This document shows, one piece after another, positions 2,495-62,212 of a stretch of DNA of 64,000 nt (position 1 is its first letter; each line of letters opens with the position of its first letter). A program made the translations under genes and the position numbers. Source of the stretch: a virus; the IMG/VR virus record IMGVR_UViG_3300000366_000001, positions 1-64,000 of that record; one strand, written 5' to 3'. Below the pieces are notes generated by a model. It saw only the letters and a program-made list of their open reading frames with translations, did no database searches and had not been told where the DNA came from.

Positions 2495-5400
2495 TTAAAA
2501 ACCTTCAGCAGACCAGCTAAATTCACCAACATCTCTATTACCGTTTATATCAAATAAATAAGCAGTAAACTCTGATTGATCGCCTGCATTATCAAAGTCA
2601 TACAATGCATATTTAGCAACTGTGCCATCAGTTTTAGCCGTCATGGTTATGCTCTGAACATCTAAGAAATTCTGGTTAAACACGACTACTTTGCCATCGG
2701 CGGCAACGTCTATTATACCATTCCCTGAGTCGTATTTTTTTCTTATATCAAGTTTAAACTGTATTGACTGTAATGTTTCTAAAGGTCGTATTGAGCCCGT
2801 TTTCTCTGTTAAGTTTATTCTAAATTTAACATATCTGAAATCTCTAAAGAATTGATTGGTGCCTGTAAAGTTATCATAAGTAATACCGTCTTGGCTCCTA
2901 CTTAAAATATACTCTTTATCAAGTCCATCAACAAGAGTTTCCCATGTATCCGTAACAGTGACACGAGTTGAATCAATTATCGTTCCGTAGTCAACAACTA
3001 CTTCATAATATCCACCTGAAACATAAGACTTTTGCATCCAGTATACATAACCTTGATCTATGACATCCTGCAATGTATATCCGCTATCAAATGTAATTAC
3101 ATCATTATCAAAAGTGTAATCATCAGTTGAATCAAAAGTATTTGGTATGCTTAGCTCTGATAAAAAATCAGCATATGTTTTGTTAGTGTCAACTGTAAAT
3201 AATACGCTTGTATCCTTTTGGATATCAAAAGTAAAATCAGCAGTCGTATCAAATGTTATTTCAGTTGTATCAAATGTTGCTGGTGTATCTCTGAAAAACT
3301 TACCGTTATTAGCATCACCGCTGTTTAAGTCTACAAGCTGATTATCAACTAATACATAATCAGGAGGCACATCAAGCTCTACTTTTAGTGACGATCTTTC
3401 ACCTATATTACCGGCAATATCAACAGGCTCAACATAATAAGTGTAGGTTCCTGCATCAGTCTCAAATCGAGTAAAAAAGGTTGTATAGGTATAACCTATT
3501 TTTTGGAATCCACCTACAACAGCCAGGGTTTCTTTGTAAACATTGTAATAATCAATCTTGAAGCCAGATACAGGTTCGCTCCAACGAAGGTTGATATTAT
3601 TGTCAATTGTCTCAGCATTTATGCCTGTAGGCTTGCTAGGGTTAACAATATTTACATTCAAAAGTGACGCATTTTCACTAAAATTATCAACAACGTCAAT
3701 CGCTTTTATGTGATATTGATAATTTCCTGACTCCAAAGGAGATACAAGTTTCTGATTAGTTCTAAGTCTATCTATCTTAAATCCAGAATCCCAATTAAAA
3801 CCTTTTCTTATTTCATACTCTTTGACATCAAGCTCTTCATTAGGCAGCCACTCTAACAAAATTCCATCTTTTTGCTGGATATAAGAAAACCCTTGCACGT
3901 TCTCGGGAGGGCTAGACTTGCCAATAATAAGCACATTATCCAAAAGCAAAAACTCGCCAGCAATACCAAACTCAGTTATAAACCTGATTCTAAAGTCATA
4001 GCTTTGTTCATCCTGCAAACCTGCAACATAAACAAAGTCATTGGTAAAATCGAAAGTTTCTTTTTTGTAATCTCCGGTGCTTCCAGATGATCTATACTGA
4101 ACCTGAATAAAACTAGGGCTAGGTCTTTTTTGCTGCCCAGCGATTGCTTCAGGCTCTTTTACAACAAAGCCAGCTCTTGTTATAAGAGATCCATCTTGAC
4201 CTATCAACAGAGCCTCTTCATCTGTTACAACAGATATTGCAACAGGTTTGGCCGGGTCTGCGTACTGATCTATAGATATAACCGAATCGACAGGGCTGTA
4301 ATCCTGAATAATTCCATTTTCAGCATCAAATATAGCAGGGTCTGCATAGTCAACCAATGCAACTTCGCAAGAATCATCAGTTCCAGGTGTTTTTTCTTTA
4401 ACGATATATTTTTGAGTTATTGATTCCGCATCAGTGCCAGCGATTGCAATATCACCGACCTGCAATTCAGAAGGAACAGCATTTAAAGTTAAAGTAGCAC
4501 CGTCAACAGAAAATACATCATAAACGCTCAAATCCTGAATTTCAGTTCCAGCATATCTAAATGTAATCTTTGTTGCGCTATCCAACTGAAACGCTTGATC
4601 TAACTCAACGTCATTACCCGATATGGATTTAACGCGAGAATAATGCAAGACACCTTGAATCTTGTCGTGCGTCATTGATACCACATCACCACGCCTAAAG
4701 TATTTATGCTCTATACCAGTGCTTACACGGTATTCTTCAGGGCGCAACACCATCTGAGCTAAAGCGTATTTAGCGTATCTGTAAACTTGGTCAGGGTCTG
4801 TTATGCCATCGCAATTAATATCCTGAATCAAGGAATCGTTAACAAGTACATCGTTATCATTACGCTTAATAATTACTTCATCGACGTTGTAGTTTTTATC
4901 CTTGTTGGCAAACTTGCAGCGCAAGGCATCAGGGATTCGAGCAAACGTCTTGCTTGCACTAAATCCATAAGTGTTAGCAGGTGTCAACCTTGATACAGCA
5001 GGCTTGCCAGGAGTGTCATAAATGATGCTGTACTTGCCATCAATCATAGAATTAGATGCACGTCCAGTACTTGCAATTTTACGCGCAAGCTCACCCACAG
5101 TAGTCTCATAATCGACTACCGTGTTATATCTGTATCTAGGCTCAAGAGTTGAACCATCTCTAGATAAAACCTGTTCATCGCAAACAGCAGCCCAATCTAG
5201 GAAAGCATCAAGGTCAATTATATCGCCCCAATCATCTACTTCTCCACCTGTATCGTCCGGTGCAGATTCAGCTTGTATAAATCGCTTGTTGGCTGGCCCT
5301 GTCAATAGCTTTAAGAATTCCCAAGCATTGTTACCTGAAGCGTCGTCATCTTCAATAAAGTCGTTATCTTCTTCTGAGTAGCGCTCGACAACAGAAGAGC

Positions 5401-7084
5401 AAACACAACTAAGGTTCTTAATGGTTTCGTTTAATTGATCGCTTGCCTTTATTTTAAGCGCGACATAACAAAATTCAGGAGGAAAAGGAACAATCTCATT
5501 GCCTTGATCATCCGTTCTTTGTATTGACCTGATATTGGTTACTGAAAACTTATCTCTTATCTTGCTATCATCTGTATCATCAGTAAGCCTTGTAACCCTT
5601 ACTTCATATGAACCTTTAGTAAGATCAGTGGCCTTTGTAGTATGAAAGTATCTTTCAGCAGAATCAGAAGTTATTGAAATAGGATTAGCGAACTCACTTA
5701 AAAAAGCGTTAGTAGTGCTTCCTGTAAGCTTGCCGTAATGTTTTGGCTTTTCCTTACGTGAGCCATATGTAAATCTATTCCATCCACCGACTTTTAAAAC
5801 AGTGCCGGTCAAGGTTACGTAGTCAGTACGGCCGAAAGAGTCAGTGGCTTTTGTACCTTTTAATTCAATAGATGAATAAACCGAATAAACATTATAGGTT
5901 CTTCCTGTTCCGTTAGTTATGACTCTGACCTCCTGTCCTGGAACGATATTAAAACCTGAAGGCAATACGATAAAGCAATCGTTGCACTGGTAGCTTTTTC
6001 TTTTTCTACGACCAGTGTGGTCATATCCATTATCAAATGTTCTACTGTATTGATCCAATACAATCTCGCAATTAGCGCCGTCCGTATTTGCATCAAAGCC
6101 AGTCCATTCAGAATCGCCAATCTTCCTATATTCAATCTGAACGTTTACCGTTCTATTTCTTCGCTTACCCTTATCATCAAATCGAACCAATCCATTAAAT
6201 GTTAGCTCTACGCCCAATTCTTCTGTATTTGGTGCGCTAGTGAATATCCTTGGCTCATCAGACTGTTTAATCAATACATTTTGCGGAGAATCTTGAATAT
6301 CACCTGTGACAAGAGTGATTTTATTGACAATATCAGAAGTCCACCCATCAGGGTCTTCTCTTCTTAAAGAATAAGCGGTATCTCTTTGATCTTGTATTTG
6401 AAGCTCATAATCTGTGAAATCTGTTAAAGGCTGGCTTCCAATCCTTATATTGTCTTCTGTTAACCCTTTAATAGGGCCGTACCCAAAGCAAAATACTTGA
6501 GTTAGCTGTACATCCTGACCATGAGCTTCACGGATAGGATTTGTAGCAAGAGGCGGTGTTACCTTAGTAGTGCCGATAAGGTAGGGTACAGGTGCGCCTG
6601 TTTTAATCGTGTTTTGAGTGCCACGAATATCTAGCGTAGAGGATTCTTTAGGGTCAGCTTTAGGCGTATCAGGAGCGTCTATAGGGATTATTTGCTGGGA
6701 TAAGTAGGTTGCTGCCATTGTTACACCGGCGCTAATGATCGCTGTGCCGAATGCGCCAGTCCCAAACGCGCCTGCTATTGCTGGAACAGCGTAGGCCTGA
6801 CCAGCCGCAACAAGTGCAACAGTTAACGCAGCACTTAAAGTGTTCTTGTTTTTAGGCTTTACATAAACCATGTACTCCCCTTCCTTGGGTCGAATTCCTT
6901 TCCAGTATTTCTGTTCAATAAAGAATAAAACGTCATCATTGCATTTATAAACAACTGACACGTCTTCACGTTCAAGATTACATTTGTCTTCTACAAACTC
7001 AAGAATAGACTTAGAGCCAGGCGCAAACTCACTGGTTCTTGTGACATCTATTAAAAATGGGTCAGCATAAATAACCTTGAACAT
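2495..7084 (-). CDS. host-specificity / central tail fibre protein (gpJ-like) with gpI-like N-terminal module
   Basis: 1529 aa, the largest ORF, placed after the distal tail genes. The N-terminal ~130 aa carry a Gly/Ala-rich hydrophobic stretch (AIAGAFGTGAFGTAIISAGV) like lambda tail-assembly protein I. Fibronectin-III-like repeats occur in the middle. Confidence 0.85.
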   Translation of the reverse strand: MFKVIYADPFLIDVTRTSEFAPGSKSILEFVEDKCNLEREDVSVVYKCNDDVLFFIEQKYWKGIRPKEGEYMVYVKPKNKNTLSAALTVALVAAGQAYAVPAIAGAFGTGAFGTAIISAGVTMAATYLSQQIIPIDAPDTPKADPKESSTLDIRGTQNTIKTGAPVPYLIGTTKVTPPLATNPIREAHGQDVQLTQVFCFGYGPIKGLTEDNIRIGSQPLTDFTDYELQIQDQRDTAYSLRREDPDGWTSDIVNKITLVTGDIQDSPQNVLIKQSDEPRIFTSAPNTEELGVELTFNGLVRFDDKGKRRNRTVNVQIEYRKIGDSEWTGFDANTDGANCEIVLDQYSRTFDNGYDHTGRRKRKSYQCNDCFIVLPSGFNIVPGQEVRVITNGTGRTYNVYSVYSSIELKGTKATDSFGRTDYVTLTGTVLKVGGWNRFTYGSRKEKPKHYGKLTGSTTNAFLSEFANPISITSDSAERYFHTTKATDLTKGSYEVRVTRLTDDTDDSKIRDKFSVTNIRSIQRTDDQGNEIVPFPPEFCYVALKIKASDQLNETIKNLSCVCSSVVERYSEEDNDFIEDDDASGNNAWEFLKLLTGPANKRFIQAESAPDDTGGEVDDWGDIIDLDAFLDWAAVCDEQVLSRDGSTLEPRYRYNTVVDYETTVGELARKIASTGRASNSMIDGKYSIIYDTPGKPAVSRLTPANTYGFSASKTFARIPDALRCKFANKDKNYNVDEVIIKRNDNDVLVNDSLIQDINCDGITDPDQVYRYAKYALAQMVLRPEEYRVSTGIEHKYFRRGDVVSMTHDKIQGVLHYSRVKSISGNDVELDQAFQLDSATKITFRYAGTEIQDLSVYDVFSVDGATLTLNAVPSELQVGDIAIAGTDAESITQKYIVKEKTPGTDDSCEVALVDYADPAIFDAENGIIQDYSPVDSVISIDQYADPAKPVAISVVTDEEALLIGQDGSLITRAGFVVKEPEAIAGQQKRPSPSFIQVQYRSSGSTGDYKKETFDFTNDFVYVAGLQDEQSYDFRIRFITEFGIAGEFLLLDNVLIIGKSSPPENVQGFSYIQQKDGILLEWLPNEELDVKEYEIRKGFNWDSGFKIDRLRTNQKLVSPLESGNYQYHIKAIDVVDNFSENASLLNVNIVNPSKPTGINAETIDNNINLRWSEPVSGFKIDYYNVYKETLAVVGGFQKIGYTYTTFFTRFETDAGTYTYYVEPVDIAGNIGERSSLKVELDVPPDYVLVDNQLVDLNSGDANNGKFFRDTPATFDTTEITFDTTADFTFDIQKDTSVLFTVDTNKTYADFLSELSIPNTFDSTDDYTFDNDVITFDSGYTLQDVIDQGYVYWMQKSYVSGGYYEVVVDYGTIIDSTRVTVTDTWETLVDGLDKEYILSRSQDGITYDNFTGTNQFFRDFRYVKFRINLTEKTGSIRPLETLQSIQFKLDIRKKYDSGNGIIDVAADGKVVVFNQNFLDVQSITMTAKTDGTVAKYALYDFDNAGDQSEFTAYLFDINGNRDVGEFSWSAEGF

Positions 7085-7177
7085 TAAAATAGCCTTATTG
7101 AAACTGATTTATTTAAACTATTTTAACACGTTTTTATTTCTAGATTTTTAGTAATAATATTTTTTATAAAAACCTTA

Positions 7178-7654
7178 TCACTGATCAAACAAGACAGGGA
7201 ATGAAGTTTGTGTAAACTTATCCTTTGGAAAAGAATCATTAAACAGCGTCTCAAAAGTCATGTCAAATGAAACTGACTGAGCATCCCAATTAGCATTAGA
7301 TAACTTAAACACATAAGGCCTTGCTCTTTCTGTGTATTGTGTTCCTGTGCTAGCTTCCTGCATAACCTGATAAACAGTGCATTTAATATCAGAATAACCT
7401 CGTGTCAAGTTTAAAAACTCGTTATTTACATCAGCAATAACCAATTTTGCTACTTGCGCTTCCCCAGCCAATTCTTTCGGTAAAGCAAAAGTAAATTGTG
7501 TCCTGTTAAAAACATCTCCGTTATAGGCAACATCCTTTGCGTTGTTAACAATTCTAAATACTTCTGTACCGGCCTCAATCTTAAGAAGGGTAAAGAAATA
7601 AGAATCAACATTTAAAGAAAAAAGCCTTTCCCTTATTGCAGCTGGCATAGCCAT
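7178..7654 (-). CDS. distal tail protein, DUF1833-like
   Basis: 158 aa. Sits between the NlpC/P60 gene and the gpJ-like gene. The N-terminus (AIRERLFSLNVDSYFFTLLKIE...VFRIVNN) resembles DUF1833 phage proteins. Confidence 0.55.
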   Translation of the reverse strand: MAMPAAIRERLFSLNVDSYFFTLLKIEAGTEVFRIVNNAKDVAYNGDVFNRTQFTFALPKELAGEAQVAKLVIADVNNEFLNLTRGYSDIKCTVYQVMQEASTGTQYTERARPYVFKLSNANWDAQSVSFDMTFETLFNDSFPKDKFTQTSFPVLFDQ

Positions 7655-11646: not shown

Positions 11647-11891
11647 TTTCTTTCATAAATTGTAGCTATATATTCTTCATCTATTGCATTAATTAACTCA
11701 TAAAAGTAAATCTCGCTTTCTAAGACAACTTCATAAACCCGTCTTAATGAATTGATTTCATCAAAGGATATTCTTTCGGGCACGCCATGTTCTAGTGAAT
11801 ACTTCCTCCACTTAAGTACATCAAAAAACCATGATATGCAAATATCAATGTTGTCATTAGATTCTGGAATTTCATATCCCTGGTATTCCAT
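11634..11891 (-). CDS. tail assembly chaperone, gpT-like part (probably expressed as a -1 frameshift extension of 11945..12328)
   Basis: The 85-aa ORF's frame stays open upstream to 11948 and is the -1 frame of the upstream chaperone ORF. Confidence 0.6.
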   Translation of the reverse strand: MEYQGYEIPESNDNIDICISWFFDVLKWRKYSLEHGVPERISFDEINSLRRVYEVVLESEIYFYELINAIDEEYIATIYERKRGK

Positions 11892-11944
11892 TAAAATCTT
11901 GATATTTTCTTCTGGCTCGTGCTGCCTAAAAAGAATATCCCTGA

Positions 11945-12328
11945 TTACTTTTTTGCTTGTTCTGAATCTTCAGTAATTGAATCAATAAGTCCAGTAGCAA
12001 GGTTGTAGCTATGTAAATAAATAGAAACAGCCAAGTCTTCGTTTTCAATATCTGAAAGGGCAAGGATAGCGTTTTTATGATTAAACTCTACTTCATTACC
12101 ATCTTCATCATAAACGCCTTCCCATCCAGTCATGTGAGTTTTTGCGAAAAATTCAATCTCTTGCGGGGTAAATAGTTCTGCCCTGTGGTTGCCAAGGTAT
12201 GACTCTAGCTTAGCCCTAAGATTAACTCGCAATGGCTGAATATGAAAAACCATCTCTTTACCATCTTCATCCTTGAAAACAAATGGCTCAAGGATTTTTT
12301 TCTCTTTTGATTTTTTACCTAGCTTCAT
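11945..12328 (-). CDS. tail assembly chaperone (gpG-like)
   Basis: 127 aa, acidic C-terminus, between the major tail and tape measure genes; ends in the slippery site. Confidence 0.7.
   Translation of the reverse strand: MKLGKKSKEKKILEPFVFKDEDGKEMVFHIQPLRVNLRAKLESYLGNHRAELFTPQEIEFFAKTHMTGWEGVYDEDGNEVEFNHKNAILALSDIENEDLAVSIYLHSYNLATGLIDSITEDSEQAKK
11948..11954 (-). other. programmed -1 ribosomal frameshift slippery heptamer A_AAA_AAG
   Basis: The zero frame reads gcA AAA AAG taa at the end of the 127-aa ORF. After a -1 slip the reading continues GTA ATC AGG ... in frame with the ATG at 11891. Confidence 0.65.
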
Positions 12329-34755: not shown

Positions 34756-34818
34756 TACAAGGGCTAAATAGGTTTGCCCACTTCACCGTGGAAATATGGC
34801 CCACCAACGAAAACAAAA

Positions 34819-35568
34819 CTAACCGCCTAACTTTCCTTCCCCGTACCATGATGCGATAATCTCGTTAATCCTGTCCAATATATCCATTCTTTTAAACCAC
34901 AAATGACAATTGCCATTTTTAAACATCTTGATCTTTAAATATTCGTTTTCATATTCTTTGCTGTTTCTTGCCTGCCTTAACTCATAAGAAAAACCATGCT
35001 CTTTAAATTCTTTGCCGTCTAATGTTTTAATAATGCGGTCAAGGTCGTTTATTTCTCCTTCATTATAATGGTTAAGCATCAAGTCACCAAAGGAGCAAAC
35101 AAACCAATTAGTTAATATAATTTTCTTGCTTACTTTAAATGCGTCATTTGTTTTGTATTTTCCTTCTAATCTTTTAAACAGATTGACTAATCCTCGATTA
35201 AAAAAGTGTTCTGCATTGTGATAGCTGCTAATTAAAGTCTCCCTGATGTTATCCATTGTAAACTCAGGTGGATTCTTTTCAAGGCTCATATCAAAATCAT
35301 TACGGGCTACTTTATCCATGTATTTATTGAATCCGGTTTTATTGATTGCGTGTCTCCAGAACCGGCGGTCTAATTCTTTCCTGAATTCATCAGGACATTT
35401 CAAGGAGCTGTTAAAAGCAAGAGGGTATAAATAATTACCCATCTGATTACAAACATCCTGAGACTTTTGCATAGTCTTGTAGGCGTGTATATGCAAGTCT
35501 AAAGCTTTATCTCTTGCTTCTACTATGTCTTCAAGCGTCTTAATGTGTGCTAGTGCTGTGGATTGCAT
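34819..35568 (-). CDS. DUF4942-like protein (tentative)
   Basis: 249 aa. The C-terminal pattern KMFKNGNCHLWFKRMDILDRIN resembles the DUF4942 signature as I recall it. Confidence 0.5.
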   Translation of the reverse strand: MQSTALAHIKTLEDIVEARDKALDLHIHAYKTMQKSQDVCNQMGNYLYPLAFNSSLKCPDEFRKELDRRFWRHAINKTGFNKYMDKVARNDFDMSLEKNPPEFTMDNIRETLISSYHNAEHFFNRGLVNLFKRLEGKYKTNDAFKVSKKIILTNWFVCSFGDLMLNHYNEGEINDLDRIIKTLDGKEFKEHGFSYELRQARNSKEYENEYLKIKMFKNGNCHLWFKRMDILDRINEIIASWYGEGKLGG

Positions 35569-35631
35569 TTTTTTGCTCCTTATGTTTTTTTGATGCTAGG
35601 TAAAGATTAACGCCATCCTTGGCATTGTTAT

Positions 35632-36336
35632 TTACTCAGGACGACTAATGAATTTGAATTTTGCATTTGGAGCAAAGACATCACCCGCATCGTCTTCGCA
35701 AAGCTCTACCTTAGATTTATCTGAGCTTAATATCGCGTTTACCTCATACCGTTTTCCTTTGGCTGTAAATCCAGAATCTTCAATACACTCAACAATATCC
35801 CCTTTTTTCCAGGTGTTAGGATCATAAATATCAACTCCTTCAGGGATATTGTTGTTTTCGTTTCTATTAAAAACGCCAACAGTGCAAGAAAACCCTGTAT
35901 TGTCTTCAATAAGACGCTCTAGCTGTCCTGTAAGCGATTCTAGGCGCTGATCCATATCAGCAGTCAGGTTTAGCAGTTCTTTAGCTTCTAGCTCCGTTTC
36001 TGTGCGCTGGCATGATAGCTCCTTGATGCTAGCTAGTAGCTGGTCAAGATTGTTTTGTTCGCTGTTGCTATTTTCGCTATTTTTGCATGGATCGTCAATA
36101 ACTGTAAAATCAAATCCCCAGTTCATAGAAGGAATATCTCCATCCTCATCTTTAGGGCCGATGATTGCATCATCGCCAGAAATCACATAAGCACACCCAG
36201 CATTGAAAGACCAGTGATCATGTAGGAGGCTAGTAAACCCATTAAACAAAACCTTTTTACCTACCATATCCTTGTTGATAGGCCATTCTAGTTTTTTGTT
36301 GCTTGTTTCATTTTTCTTGTTACCTGTGTCATTCAT
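35632..36336 (-). CDS. hypothetical protein with central coiled coil
   Basis: Start moved to the ATG at 36336 (MNDTGNKK...) after GAGGAT. It is the first gene after cassette copy 3. Confidence 0.55.
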   Translation of the reverse strand: MNDTGNKKNETSNKKLEWPINKDMVGKKVLFNGFTSLLHDHWSFNAGCAYVISGDDAIIGPKDEDGDIPSMNWGFDFTVIDDPCKNSENSNSEQNNLDQLLASIKELSCQRTETELEAKELLNLTADMDQRLESLTGQLERLIEDNTGFSCTVGVFNRNENNNIPEGVDIYDPNTWKKGDIVECIEDSGFTAKGKRYEVNAILSSDKSKVELCEDDAGDVFAPNAKFKFISRPE

Positions 36337-60003: not shown

Positions 60004-60135
60004 CTAGAAATCAAGGCCTAAACCAAAAAAATCCACCTCTTTTGGTGGATTCTTCTTTTGCTCTTTTTTCTTATCCTTGAAAACCTTGGCCTTGTTGAAT
60101 TTGCGGCTATGCTTTGCTACTGGATTGTGCTTCAT
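60004..60135 (-). CDS. 43-aa lysine-rich peptide (possible ArfA-like ribosome-rescue factor)
   Basis: MKHNPVAKHSRKFNKAKVFKDKKKEQKKNPPKEVDFFGLGLDF; GGAGA lies 6 nt upstream. It is the only part of the 101-aa track ORF that does not overlap tRNAs. Confidence 0.45.
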   Translation of the reverse strand: MKHNPVAKHSRKFNKAKVFKDKKKEQKKNPPKEVDFFGLGLDF

Positions 60136-60160
60136 TGTTTTATCTCCAATAGGATTAAAT

Positions 60161-60237
60161 TGGTACGCTAGGCAGGACTTGAACCCGCAACCTAGTGGGT
60201 AGAAACCACTTGCTCTATCCAGTTGAGCTACTAGCGT
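60161..60237 (-). tRNA. tRNA-Arg (anticodon UCU)
   Basis: Hand-folded cloverleaf. Acceptor ACGCTAG/CTAGCGT, D stem GCTC/GAGC, anticodon stem AGTGG/CCACT with loop TTTCTAC, T arm GCGGG-TTCAAGT-CCTGC, CCA encoded. Confidence 0.85.
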
Positions 60238-60239
60238 AT

Positions 60240-60311
60240 TGGAAGGCAGGACGGGACTCGAACCCGTATTATCTGGGCTTGCAATCCAGTACTTAACCAG
60301 TTCAGCCACCT
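60240..60311 (-). tRNA. tRNA-Cys (anticodon GCA), short D arm
   Basis: T arm ACGGG-TTCGAGT-CCCGT, anticodon loop TTGCAAG, acceptor with two G.U pairs and one mismatch, 3-bp D stem, CCA encoded. Confidence 0.65.
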
Positions 60312-60552
60312 ACCCATAAAAACAAGGAGAGCGCCCCTTGCAGTGCCCTCCAAGGCCATAACCTGACGGCATAGGTCGGCTAAAAAACCAACTATAGCAC
60401 CAGCCTGATAAACATGCTATAGCGACTCTCGCTATTTGAGCATCACCCTACAAGGATTTGTTGGGGATAGGCTTGCGGGGTAATCTATGACTTACTGTTA
60501 ATGCAATGACTGTATTTTTTTTGCCAATGGTTCGCAGTAGGTCTTATTTTAT

Positions 60553-60628
60553 TGGTCGGAATTAAAGGACTCGAGCCTTTGACCCCCTGATCCCAAATCA
60601 GGTGCTCTACCAACTGAGCTAAATTCCG
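60553..60628 (-). tRNA. tRNA-Pro (anticodon UGG)
   Basis: Acceptor CGGAATT/AATTCCG, D stem GCTC/GAGC, anticodon stem CCTGA/TCAGG with loop TTTGGGA, T stem AAAGG/CCTTT, CCA encoded. Confidence 0.85.
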
Positions 60629-60633
60629 TAAAC

Positions 60634-60706
60634 TGGTGGACGCACAGGAATCGAACCAAGATCAAGCGATTATGAGTCGCACGATTTTACCTTTAATCTA
60701 TAGTCC
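60634..60706 (-). tRNA. tRNA-Met-like element (CAU), degenerate - possibly a pseudogene or a tRNA-like processing signal
   Basis: Good anticodon arm (GCGA-CTCATAA-TCGC), GGTTCGATTCC T-loop box and terminal CCA. However only 4 of 7 acceptor pairs and 2-3 of 5 T-stem pairs form. Confidence 0.4.
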
Positions 60707-61324
60707 CATTAAGCTTTTTTTCTACTCTGACAAGCAATTGCATGAATTTTATAATTAAATAATAATGCAGCGGCCTGGTAATCCAGATCCTTGATTATTG
60801 CGCCCGAATTCTCAGACGACTAATACTGCATTGGTGAAGGGTTCGTCTCTTATACGATAACACCCTTGAAAACAAAGGCTTAGCTCCTGAACCCTTCCCA
60901 ATGACTAGCAGATATACCGCTGCTAGTGCCGGTAATGCAGTGGCCGGTGCTGATCCCGGCACATCCTATGATGCCTGCTGTGCAGTATTAAGGACACCTC
61001 CCCGACAGGTTTTGGCGCATCAGCCTGCGCATTCACTGCATCAGGAAGGATTCTGTGCTGAGTCGAACAGCACTCACTACTTACAGTAGTCGCATATCTC
61101 ATTCAGGATTTACGGCCGATATTTACCTGAACCCCTTTTGCTAGCATCACCGCTATGCTTCAGAACCCTTCCCGATGCCCACTCCTTTTTAGCGGCGAGT
61201 GGGTTTCCGCTTTAGCAACCCGCAATAGTGTGCATAATAACGCCAAGTTTCGCAAGGATTCCCAGCTTGCTCCATGAGCTTCAGGGGCCGTTTAGCGGGT
61301 GTTGTTGCTTTTTTATCTTTCTAG
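60707..61324 (-). ncRNA. candidate large structured non-coding RNA (~600 nt), class unknown
   Basis: No credible ORF and higher GC than the flanks. A consensus promoter sits just upstream. Many hand-found helices include a pseudoknot and long-range pairs. G.U pairs and a UUCGACU loop favour the minus strand. Confidence 0.55.
60727..60755 (+). promoter_or_regulatory. plus-strand promoter-like CTGACA-17-TATAAT (antisense to the RNA candidate)
   Basis: -35 at 60727-60732 and -10 at 60750-60755; function uncertain. Confidence 0.3.
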
Positions 61325-61330
61325 GCTGTA

Positions 61331-61358
61331 ATTGTACCACACTTTTTTGTGTCGTCAA
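61331..61358 (-). promoter_or_regulatory. sigma70-type promoter TTGACG-16-(TGg)TACAAT
   Basis: -35 at 61358-61353; extended -10 TGGTACAAT at 61339-61331. It points into the ORF-free region and the tRNA array. Confidence 0.7.
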
Positions 61359-61377
61359 ACACTTTTTTAAAATTTTT

Positions 61378-62055
61378 TTAGGTCATCACCTCCAGCGCCT
61401 TATTGATCTTGACTTCAAAGTCTTTTAGTACCGATTCATTCCAATGTAGCATTGATCCAGAACGTTTGCAATAGGGTTTCCCTTTATTTGTTGGCTTCCA
61501 CAGCGGCATCTTGTGTTTGCTGTAACAGCGAACTTGTAGACCTAACGCCATAAGGATATTGTTCATAGTGTGCGAACCAATGCCACCCATCCTTTCTGAC
61601 AAGTCCTTTACTTTTACGTACTGCCTAATAGGGATAGCCATAGAGTCAATTTTAGCTGACAAGCCAGCAATCATTTGCTTCAATTCTTCCGCTTGCTCTG
61701 ATTGCTGGACGCTATAGCTTCCTGACTTGCGGATAGAGGGCAGGACTTCGCTGTGAATCCAACGGTTCAGCTTCTTGCTTGTTTCCGTGTTGGATCGGCT
61801 AACAAGATAGGTTACGGCTGGATCACTAATAATTGTTGTTTCTTTTACACCGAATCCAGTTTCAAGGTGGGTAGTCCTTGTATACCCAGCTCCAAAAACA
61901 TCCTCAATAGTGCTGCGCGCAATAGCCGGACGTGTAGTACTGCCCATAGAGTCAAGGACATCGCGCAACACAAACCATACCGAATCGTCTTGGCTGTCAC
62001 CTACAGTCCTTACGCTAGCGCCTTCTTCAAAACTAAAAACCTGCAATGCAGTCAT
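61378..62055 (-). CDS. BRO-N / antirepressor-type protein
   Basis: ATG at 62055 after AGAGGTGG. LQVFSFEEGASVRTVGDSQDDSVWFVLRDV is a typical Bro-N domain. Confidence 0.75.
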   Translation of the reverse strand: MTALQVFSFEEGASVRTVGDSQDDSVWFVLRDVLDSMGSTTRPAIARSTIEDVFGAGYTRTTHLETGFGVKETTIISDPAVTYLVSRSNTETSKKLNRWIHSEVLPSIRKSGSYSVQQSEQAEELKQMIAGLSAKIDSMAIPIRQYVKVKDLSERMGGIGSHTMNNILMALGLQVRCYSKHKMPLWKPTNKGKPYCKRSGSMLHWNESVLKDFEVKINKALEVMT

Positions 62056-62212
62056 CTTTACCACCTCTTTATTCTGATTAAGTGGCTTTAATCTAGCCTT
62101 TTCCACCAAAAAGATCAAGTCTTTTTCAGCATCATCCCCATAAAAATCAACCTGCCAACAGATAAAGATTCTCATTCTCTAGCTTGAAGGCCGAAAAAGC
62201 CATTTTAAGAAA

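Follow-up and report, generated by a model that had tools for sequence, protein, structure and literature searches.

What kind of element occupies a long gene-free interval between an antirepressor gene and an array of tRNA genes in a phage genome? The interval is situated in the first 64,000 nucleotides (nt) of the IMG/VR virus record IMGVR_UViG_3300000366_000001, i.e., in the whole stretch of DNA analysed here, hereafter called the window. The genes around it all lie on the minus strand: the antirepressor open reading frame (ORF), which matches anti-repressor families of PHROGs, ends at 61378, the first tRNA-like gene starts at 60707, and 670 nt lie between them. An earlier interpretation made from the letters of the window (the sequence-only reading) had seen here a structured non-coding RNA on the minus strand, and the comparative data bear this out. 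The interval is a non-coding leader of the phage tRNA operon and consists of folded modules; its core, a cloverleaf of 119 nt, is one of a large family of phage and prophage RNAs missing from Rfam 15. Judged by their architecture, the modules appear to be derived from tRNA or to mimic it. Concerning function, a tRNA-mimicking cassette for processing or stability is tentatively favoured, and it is weighed below against other readings.

Relatives of the region

Relatives were sought via the Holliday-junction resolvase encoded downstream of the tRNAs. Only one contig, L001 (resolvase 65% identical), has a syntenic ORF-free stretch, 1078 nt in length (6382-7459) and situated between a Bro-N gene region and a tRNA array. 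The complementary words AUGCAGUGA and GCCACUGCAUUA are common to the window and L001; a gapped pattern made from them led to true homologues in IMG/VR, and a conserved string, GCAGUGAAUGCnnAGGCUGAU, led to more copies in IMG/VR and in bacterial genomes (Dyella, Rhodanobacter, Halomonas, and others). A metagenome scan by the resolvase yielded five short, distant contigs, none of which carries the RNA. Megablast and blastn searches of the window region against GenBank phages found no relative and only tRNA matches, an exact 25-mer of the region is absent from IMG/VR, and a search of IMG/VR and exact look-ups for the antirepressor neighbours gave nothing. The portal protein of the window phage shares about 25% identity with its counterparts in Pseudomonas and Bordetella phages.

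The core cloverleaf

A covariance model, R1, was built from 24 phage and prophage sequences and comprises the closing helix P1, hairpin A, and hairpin B. Because the window sequence is among these 24, the window copy matches R1 partly by construction; loci outside the building set score between 57 and 91 bits, and about 100 distinct copies of the core are found by R1 in phage and prophage DNA. On the window core, R1 scores 84.8 bits on the minus strand, to which the tRNA array also belongs, versus 13.7 bits on the opposite strand. An element acting at the DNA level was rejected because of this strand asymmetry and of G.U pairs in P1 and in the helix P0 described below.

In the family, P1 (7-9 base pairs, bp) is followed by AAU, hairpin A, a variable arm, hairpin B, and a tail that is often ACC. 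Hairpin A, preceded by the linker of 3 nt, has a stem of 4 bp and a loop of 8 nt, AGGCUGAU; the variable arm measures between 26 and 173 nt; hairpin B has a stem of 5 bp and a loop of 8-9 nt, (A)GAUCAGCA, which is not a T-loop, and its 3' strand continues directly into the 3' strand of P1. An N-CC tail follows P1 directly in 37 of 75 family sequences, and it reads ACC in 28 of the 75. Hairpin A, GCGC-AGGCUGAU-GCGC, is D-arm-like when compared with GCUC-AGUUGGUA-GAGC of tRNA.

Compensatory changes in homologues, a check proposed along with the sequence-only reading, exist for the core, its loops, helix P0, and hairpin H2. In set A2, which consists of 36 R1 matches, 95.5% of the pair cells hold standard pairs, and 14 of the 18 pairs show compensatory changes; none of 500 shuffles reaches the observed values, and slid controls are paired to 28-44%. 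Set A4 was collected separately with another pattern, the loop variant AGACUGAU, and contains 65 further matches, of which the 51 distinct ones have 95.9% of cells paired and compensatory changes in all nine P1 pairs. The alignments of both sets were fitted to R1; the changes in P1 are visible in the raw sequences, too.

Such conservation bears on the idea that the region might be made up of decayed tRNA genes, or be the leader of a precursor, inert and functionless in itself. Decay would fit the tRNA-like features of both domains, the clearly degenerate second unit of the window (Table 1), and the 5' and 3' parts that have no homologues. Pseudogenes, however, would not keep about 95% pairing through many compensatory changes, covarying loop-loop pairs would not persist in them, and recurrence in about 200 GenBank phage records and in 1232 of 5426 Escherichia coli genomes would be unexpected. 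Because of the covariation this idea is already disfavoured, and it is the least probable of all the explanations considered here.

The loops of hairpins A and B are complementary to each other (GCUGAU / AUCAGC), and an A replacing the G in loop A goes together with a U replacing the C in loop B. The counts for this pair (G-C 30, A-U 37, A.C 6, G.U 1) give a Fisher p of 1.3e-13, which is uncorrected for phylogeny. The loops covary, and the loop-loop pairing is therefore regarded as real; the covariation is compatible with pairing within one molecule and between molecules alike, two arrangements that sequence cannot tell apart. Hairpin B of the related contig L001 (7260-7280) has a palindromic loop, GAUAUC, for which no complementary loop A can be seen; such self-complementarity would favour intermolecular pairing.

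If the loops paired between molecules, the core might be a stable trans-acting RNA that forms dimers or oligomers as ROOL, GOLLD, and OLE do; alternatively, its fold might bind or decoy a host factor, for which a tRNA-directed defence nuclease, RNase P, and the CCA-adding enzyme would be candidates. The loops have the format of kissing loops (two purines and a complementary tract of 6 nt, followed in loop B by one purine), they covary, even if this does not distinguish between the two modes of pairing, and they hardly vary among phages of Pseudomonas, Klebsiella, Escherichia, and Burkholderia. By geometric reasoning, a coaxial intramolecular kiss of 6 bp would be strained, with stems A and B joined to the same end of P1 by 3 and 0 nt; tandem copies occur (two in the phage-plasmid L119), and the association with phage tRNA regions parallels that of ROOL and GOLLD. 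On the other side, many copies are situated a few nt before a ribosome-binding site or in a lambda-type N leader, which fits a role in cis better, and the loop pairing can equally be read as an enlarged tRNA-elbow contact (G19-C56-like) in one molecule. In sum, a trans-acting RNA seems unlikely.

The near-invariance of the loops and of the AAU junction inside otherwise freely varying helices might also point to a new class of self-cleaving ribozyme, with kissing loops and junction as its active site; self-cleaving ribozymes of small size, which make use of loop-loop contacts, are frequent in the genomes of phages. The core, however, has no conserved internal loops or bulges of the kind typical of catalytic cores, and no known ribozyme family in Rfam 15 matches it, such that this possibility appears very improbable.

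Helix P0, hairpin H2, and the sliding junction

In the window, the core is the last part of a larger unit (unit 1, 61203-60929), which begins with hairpin H2 and continues with the long helix P0; P0 encloses a tRNA-like domain (domain I), and the core (domain II) follows directly after it. All 17 bp of P0 are formed in the window, and the global minimum free energy (MFE) structure contains the helix as well. Across the family, at least 15 of the 17 pairs are present in at least 18 of 35 loci, a value that none of 100 shuffles reaches; the 3' strand, 17 nt of which the last four are already the start of P1, has its partner segment 36-127 nt upstream. In several further loci P0 is visible by eye at an offset of 1-2 nt, and the rigid scan scored these low. 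The sequences diverge strongly (window, CAUCGGGAAGGGUUCUG/CAGAAUCCUUCCUGAUG; L084, CAUCGGAGGUCGGCUUG/CAGGCCGACCUCCGAUG), positions 11-15 exhibit four or more pair types, and at position 7 a mismatch is recurrent.

The first 4 nt of P1, GAUG, can pair either with the CAUC that starts the 5' strand of P0 or with the CAUC that ends the 3' strand of P1. Both pairings covary, and the P0/P1 junction can therefore slide by 4 bp. An alternative pairing had been suspected earlier elsewhere, from the 11-mer GGGAAGGGUUC and its complement: the two copies of the 11-mer exist (60889-60899 and 61163-61173) and are the 5' strands of P0b and P0, the long helices of two tandem units, whereas the complement (60834-60844) has one mismatch, and the alternative actually found is that of GAUG.

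A hairpin is found at the position of H2 in nearly all P0-bearing loci, with differing stems (GGCUC/GAGCC, CACUGG/CCAGUG, CCACCAG/CUGGUGG), and among the L098 copies a compensatory change from A-U to G-C exists in it. Two extra modules consisting of H2 plus CAUCGG are situated in L098 300-500 nt downstream of the core (11723-11774 and 11904-11969); they differ by a compensatory change, and the module can thus occur apart from the core.

Within domain I, a T-arm-like hairpin abuts the 3' strand of P0. A canonical T-arm (stem of 5 bp, loop UUCRANY) exists in 7 of 23 P0 inserts and abuts the 3' strand of P0 in five of them, the window included; in L056/L008 its stem differs (CCCUG/CAGGG). The P0 domain of Pseudomonas phage ZC03 is annotated and called as tRNA-Arg. 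This annotated tRNA-Arg of 82 nt (L116 2414-2495) lies inside P0, its acceptor stem being lengthened by a leader-trailer pairing of about 9 bp, and it may be the tRNA-like domain of a larger RNA, not a working tRNA.

Most of the helices drawn in the sequence-only reading are borne out, and seven of them coincide with conserved elements. Four of them, P1 (60935-60942 / 61034-61041), hairpin B (60943-60947 / 60956-60960), hairpin A (61015-61019 / 61026-61030), and H2 (61178-61184 / 61197-61203), are conserved and covary in other phages; the hairpin 61055-61060 / 61068-61073 is the T-arm-like one found in other loci, and the helices 60829-60844 / 60889-60903 and 60905-60911 / 60920-60926 are the long helix and the H2 of the second unit. 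Missing from that list were the 17-bp helix 61177-61161 / 61055-61039, i.e., P0, and the loop-loop pairing. The region had also been pictured as one RNA of about 600 nt; conservation turned out to be modular (the core; H2 plus P0 with the tRNA-like domain; a degenerate copy) and does not extend from end to end. The 5' segment (61204-61324) has no homologue in any locus by nhmmer and no Rfam match. Two pairings drawn earlier therefore stay putative, homologues being absent for them: the strand 61191-61195 / 61207-61211 that crosses H2 as a pseudoknot, and the closing helix 61215-61223 / 61295-61308.

Table 1. Position of the features in the window, ordered 5' to 3' as in the RNA; all are on the minus strand.
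Feature	Position	Remarks
Promoter-like site	61331..61358	-35 TTGACG 61358-61353, 16-nt spacer, extended -10 TG-n-TACAAT 61339-61331; 10/12 matches plus TG
5' leader segment	61204..61324	no homologue by nhmmer; includes the putative helix drawn earlier, 61215-61223 / 61295-61308
Hairpin H2	61178..61203	CCCACUC / GAGUGGG; directly 5' of P0
P0 5' strand, CAUCGGGAAGGGUUCUG	61161..61177	pairs 17/17 with 61055-61039
Domain I interior	61055..61160	tRNA-like, enclosed by P0
T-arm-like hairpin	61073-61055	GUGCUG-UUCGACU-CAGCAC; abuts P0 3' strand
P0 3' strand, CAGAAUCCUUCCUGAUG	61039..61055	ends in GAUG, with which the P1 5' strand begins
Core cloverleaf (domain II)	61047-60929	119 nt; R1 84.8 bits, E 1.8e-21, model positions 1-127
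P1 closing helix	61042-61034 / 60942-60934	9 bp
AAU linker		3 nt, between P1 and hairpin A
Hairpin A	61030-61015	D-arm-like; loop AGGCUGAU
Variable arm	61014-60961	
Hairpin B	60960-60943	T-arm-like; loop GAUCAGCA
ACC tail	60933-60931	
Degenerate second unit	60764..60926	canonical A and B loops missing
Hairpin H2b	60926-60905	
Long helix P0b	60903-60889 / 60844-60829	
P1b, AAUGCAGU / GCUGCAUU	60832-60825 / 60771-60764	
Second-unit hairpin	60786-60775	
AU-rich spacer	60708..60763	second unit to first tRNA-like gene
tRNA array	60161..60707	co-oriented
Atypical tRNA	60707-60637	Rfam 37 bits; no ARAGORN call
tRNA-Pro	60628-60553	ARAGORN
ORF-free spacer	60552-60316	237 nt, tRNA-Pro to tRNA-Cys; terminator-like hairpin 60341-60322
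tRNA-Cys	60315-60240	ARAGORN
tRNA-Arg	60237-60161	ARAGORN

Coding content, composition, and promoter

The stretch 60708-61377 is non-coding and holds no credible ORF. Four short ORFs are present in it: those of 62 and 66 amino acids on the plus strand, which had been named earlier as the only ones, and two more on the minus strand, of 55 (60795-60962) and 59 amino acids (60923-61102). None of the four matches PHROGs, and insertions in the variable arm, of arbitrary length, set the homologues apart; a protein-coding reading was rejected on these grounds. The G+C content over 60800-61300 is 0.50-0.53, compared with 0.36-0.44 in the flanks, in agreement with the rise seen previously. The MFE z-score of the whole region is about -2.6 on both strands and thus not discriminating; support for an RNA therefore comes from the comparative data, not from folding energy.

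The near-consensus promoter reported to face into the region is present (61358-61331), but matches of this quality are no more frequent in the region than in shuffles (5 found, 4.9 expected), and because of this the site is plausible by position only. From its location, a transcript start near 61324 is predicted.

Comparison with known RNA families

A scan of Rfam, likewise proposed earlier, detected no described family other than tRNAs, be it at gathering scores in the whole window, at an expectation value (E) of up to 1 in 4 kilobases (kb), or at E<=10 in the 611-nt region. ROOL, GOLLD, tmRNA, RNase P, group I and II introns, OLE, raiA, C4, YrlA, and the known ribozymes have no match at E<=10 and were therefore rejected; ROOL (RF03087) is included in Rfam 15. 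For tmRNA, there is also no ARAGORN call in the window. The tRNA model (RF00005) finds nothing within 60720-61330 at E<=10, and ARAGORN is silent there.

The likeness to ROOL and GOLLD (RF01998) perceived in the sequence-only reading does not extend to a match with either model at E<=10. What the window shares with these two is an ORF-free structured RNA of several hundred nt beside phage tRNA genes, to which no function is assigned, here 670 nt directly upstream of four co-oriented tRNA genes, as well as complementary loops that could in principle mediate self-association. It differs in that the family is modular, with a core of 119 nt and optional domains, and occurs mainly in phages of Proteobacteria.

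With tRNA and tRNA-like elements (mascRNA, viral tRNA-like structures, T4 species 1 RNA), the element has in common the order of the cloverleaf, the abutting T-arm-like hairpin, a D-arm-like hairpin after a short linker, a loop contact, an N-CC tail in half of the sequences as a possible counterpart of the single-stranded N-CCA end, and a site in or before tRNA arrays. Despite these similarities there are clear differences from tRNA: P1 of the core has 7-9 bp, the loop contact is a Watson-Crick helix of 6 bp, the central arm of 26-173 nt exhibits no anticodon-like conservation, and tRNA models do not recognise the core. With filters off, R1 left rnaC and rnaD unmatched in the tRNA region of T4, its best score (9 bits) lying elsewhere in that locus. 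R1 gave no match in CPS-53 of E. coli K-12, either.

Proteo-phage-1 (RF03044) is, like the present family, an orphan structured RNA of proteobacterial phages and prophages. It is undetected in the window, has another structure, and its Rfam model omits H2, P0, and the core. In six IMG/VR loci (L025, L050, L056, L079, L084, L097), however, Proteo-phage-1 (58-72 bits) precedes the core by 140-220 nt and shares its strand, so that the two probably belong to one larger transcript in these loci.

P0 resembles the leader-trailer stems of rRNA and tRNA operons in being a 17-bp helix that flanks a tRNA-like domain and carries a recurrent internal mismatch. RNase III processing stems bracket mature RNAs in such operons; we know of no description for them of a sharing of 4 nt as between P0 and P1. 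In the open-access literature, including that on Proteo-phage-1, prophage sRNAs (AgvB, AsxR, Pas), ROOL and GOLLD, and tRNA-like RNAs of phages, no paper was found that contains the conserved strings of the family or describes the motif, though an earlier description is possible. The family, the kissing elbow, and the sliding junction appear to be new, whereas the kind of RNA is familiar: an orphan structured, tRNA-like RNA associated with phage tRNAs.

Distribution and genomic context

With a core query of 97 nt, blastn finds about 200 GenBank phage records, nearly all matches being situated in unannotated DNA. The main host genera of these records are Pseudomonas (61), Klebsiella (59), and Escherichia (35), accompanied by Burkholderia, Salmonella, and Erwinia. 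A query of 261 nt around the core of E. coli phage ep3 matches the 1232 of 5426 complete E. coli genomes mentioned above (about one quarter), on chromosomes as well as on plasmids of about 100 kb, including O157 prophages and phage-plasmids; three of these matches were checked with R1.

Concerning genomic position, the core lies inside the tRNA array in ZC03 and, as two tandem copies of which the second abuts tRNA-Ser, in L119. It precedes tRNA-Ser by 3 nt in KP591P1, and in phiEt88 it comes after a Q-type antiterminator gene and 17 nt before tRNA-Phe, such that the distance between core and tRNA amounts to 0-17 nt in these last three. In PAJU2 the core is found after Q and before the lysis genes, in an O157 prophage between a cI-like repressor gene and yfdP, and in the lambda-like prophage L120 (core at 3489-3644) between nutL (boxA/boxB) and the start of N. 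In Klebsiella phage Magnus (L115 1900-4900), a stretch of about 2.7 kb upstream of tRNA-Met/Arg is annotated as a series of hypothetical proteins of 30-70 amino acids; it contains a core at 2498-2741 (59.6 bits), and its small ORFs have probably been annotated in error, the DNA being non-coding.

L120 (3405-3670; prophage of E. coli Ecol_AZ147) has the pL leader of lambda. The flanks and the N ribosome-binding region are identical to those of lambda (L130 600-800), and the core (P1 GAUUGGAUG / CAUCCAAUC) stands in place of the lambda N-leader hairpin, as if one cassette had been swapped for another at this classic regulatory site. This core, as opposed to that of the window, thus shares its position with the lambda hairpin, and its closing helix likewise brings nutL next to the ribosome-binding site of N. 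The two elements are unlike each other in sequence and internal structure, and R1 finds no match in lambda itself at E<=1 (34800-36200, N leader).

Such positions might suggest a leader element that acts in cis on elongation, by antitermination or by protection from Rho as in HK022 put or Bacillus EAR, and that would permit RNA polymerase to read through the untranslated tRNA array and terminators inside it. The core is indeed promoter-proximal in long operons (in the pL leader of L120 and L118, after Q in PAJU2 and phiEt88, before tRNA arrays), and in the window a terminator-like hairpin (60341-60322) inside the array must be read through. The core nevertheless co-occurs with N plus nutL and with Q, which already antiterminate, copies are located in mid-array in ZC03 and L119, and its closed cloverleaf of several helices is unlike the two-hairpin architecture of HK022 put RNA. 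R1 detects nothing significant in a 10-kb stretch of HK022 (NC_002166 24000-34000; best 14.9 bits, E 0.017), within which the put sites were not located. We consider a role in elongation improbable, and less likely than one in trans.

Function of the element

Since the element is found in operon leaders and tRNA arrays whatever the downstream gene, and once replaces the hairpin of lambda, a processing or stability cassette handled by the host enzymes that mature tRNA and rRNA is the explanation we prefer, albeit tentatively. Its modules are considered tRNA-like because of the helix order of the cloverleaf, the T-arm-like hairpin abutting P1, the D-arm-like hairpin A, the N-CC tail, and a loop contact placed as in the tRNA elbow. 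The leader is probably part of a minus-strand transcript that starts at the promoter-like site (61358-61331) or reads through from the antirepressor gene, and that extends into the tRNAs. The mimicry of tRNA might be close enough for the modules to be handled by the host enzymes that act on precursors of tRNA and rRNA: RNase P and 3' trimming would act on the cloverleaf, and RNase III might act on P0. Cuts at fixed points of the primary transcript would follow. A compact RNA resistant to nucleases would be freed in this way, and the tRNAs or mRNA downstream would receive their ends. As to the lambda hairpin replaced in L120, Wilson et al. (2002, as cited in PMC5725501) reportedly described it as an RNase III processing site that controls N translation.

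Several points weigh against a processing cassette. The mechanism itself is drawn from architecture and context only, and the covariance model for tRNA and ARAGORN recognise neither domain of the window. About half of the sequences lack the N-CC tail, a same-strand tRNA lies within 1 kb downstream in only 9 of 39 loci, and many copies simply precede an ORF, with a ribosome-binding site and the ORF within 10-60 nt downstream. The loops, nearly invariant as they are, point to a specific partner or tertiary fold, which a mere processing signal does not obviously need, and the two covarying partners of GAUG are left unexplained. Within the window, furthermore, about 120 nt at the 5' end and the second unit have no comparative support, and the promoter match is statistically unremarkable.

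A different reading, which we judge possible and less probable than the cassette, takes the core as an undescribed class of tRNA-derived RNA, whose elbow of D-loop and T-loop is a Watson-Crick helix and would confer a dedicated activity, on which phages with many different proteobacterial hosts would rely in their early, late, and tRNA operons. This activity could be that of a new class of substrate for RNase P or the CCA-adding enzyme that punctuates transcripts, that of a self-assembling RNA, or that of a new ribozyme.

Second unit, tRNA array, and neighbouring genes

Downstream of the core follows a second, degenerate unit, of which R1 detects the P1-like helix alone (8.8 bits, E 0.025). 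It resembles positions 7207-7295 of the related phage contig L001 (R1 24.9 bits; shared words). For the AU-rich spacer that separates it from the array (60708-60763), nhmmer found no homologue.

The first gene of the array (60637-60707) has the anticodon loop CUCAUAA (anticodon CAU) and several mismatches in the acceptor stem; it may be a pseudo-tRNA or an unusual Met/Ile2 tRNA. Farther downstream, the 237-nt spacer (60316-60552) has no Rfam match; its 3' half, including the terminator-like hairpin, is conserved in the related contig L003 (9-126; nhmmer E 8e-8), and the spacer may function as an attenuator inside the array or as a further RNA element. Directly after tRNA-Arg, a small and very basic ORF (60019-60150, minus strand; MKHNPVAKHSRKFNKAKVF...) matches phrog_1359, and at the corresponding place L001 (8502-8624) carries a gene of 40 amino acids with Pfam DUF7230 (PF23876).

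On the other side of the region, the antirepressor ORF (61378-62175, minus strand) has its first in-frame ATG at 62175; the ATG at 62055, with GAGGTGG in front of it, is the more probable start. As an exact protein, each of the two versions is absent from the records.

Significance

The occurrence of the core downstream of Proteo-phage-1 suggests that this orphan of Rfam is only the 5' domain of a larger RNA, and some strings of phage hypothetical proteins as well as odd tRNA calls in these regions appear to be mis-annotations. The loop-loop contact and the sliding P0/P1 junction constitute concrete, testable structural hypotheses. If truly undescribed, the family would be among the more widespread unannotated structured RNAs of proteobacterial phages. 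If the core were indeed a tRNA-derived class with a dedicated activity, lambdoid phages would have in it a regulatory component so far missed and unannotated, present in about one quarter of E. coli genomes. The family is situated at classic control points, namely the pL/N leader, the region after Q, and tRNA arrays, so that it may be a missing part of the picture of lambdoid gene expression and of the maturation of phage tRNA operons.

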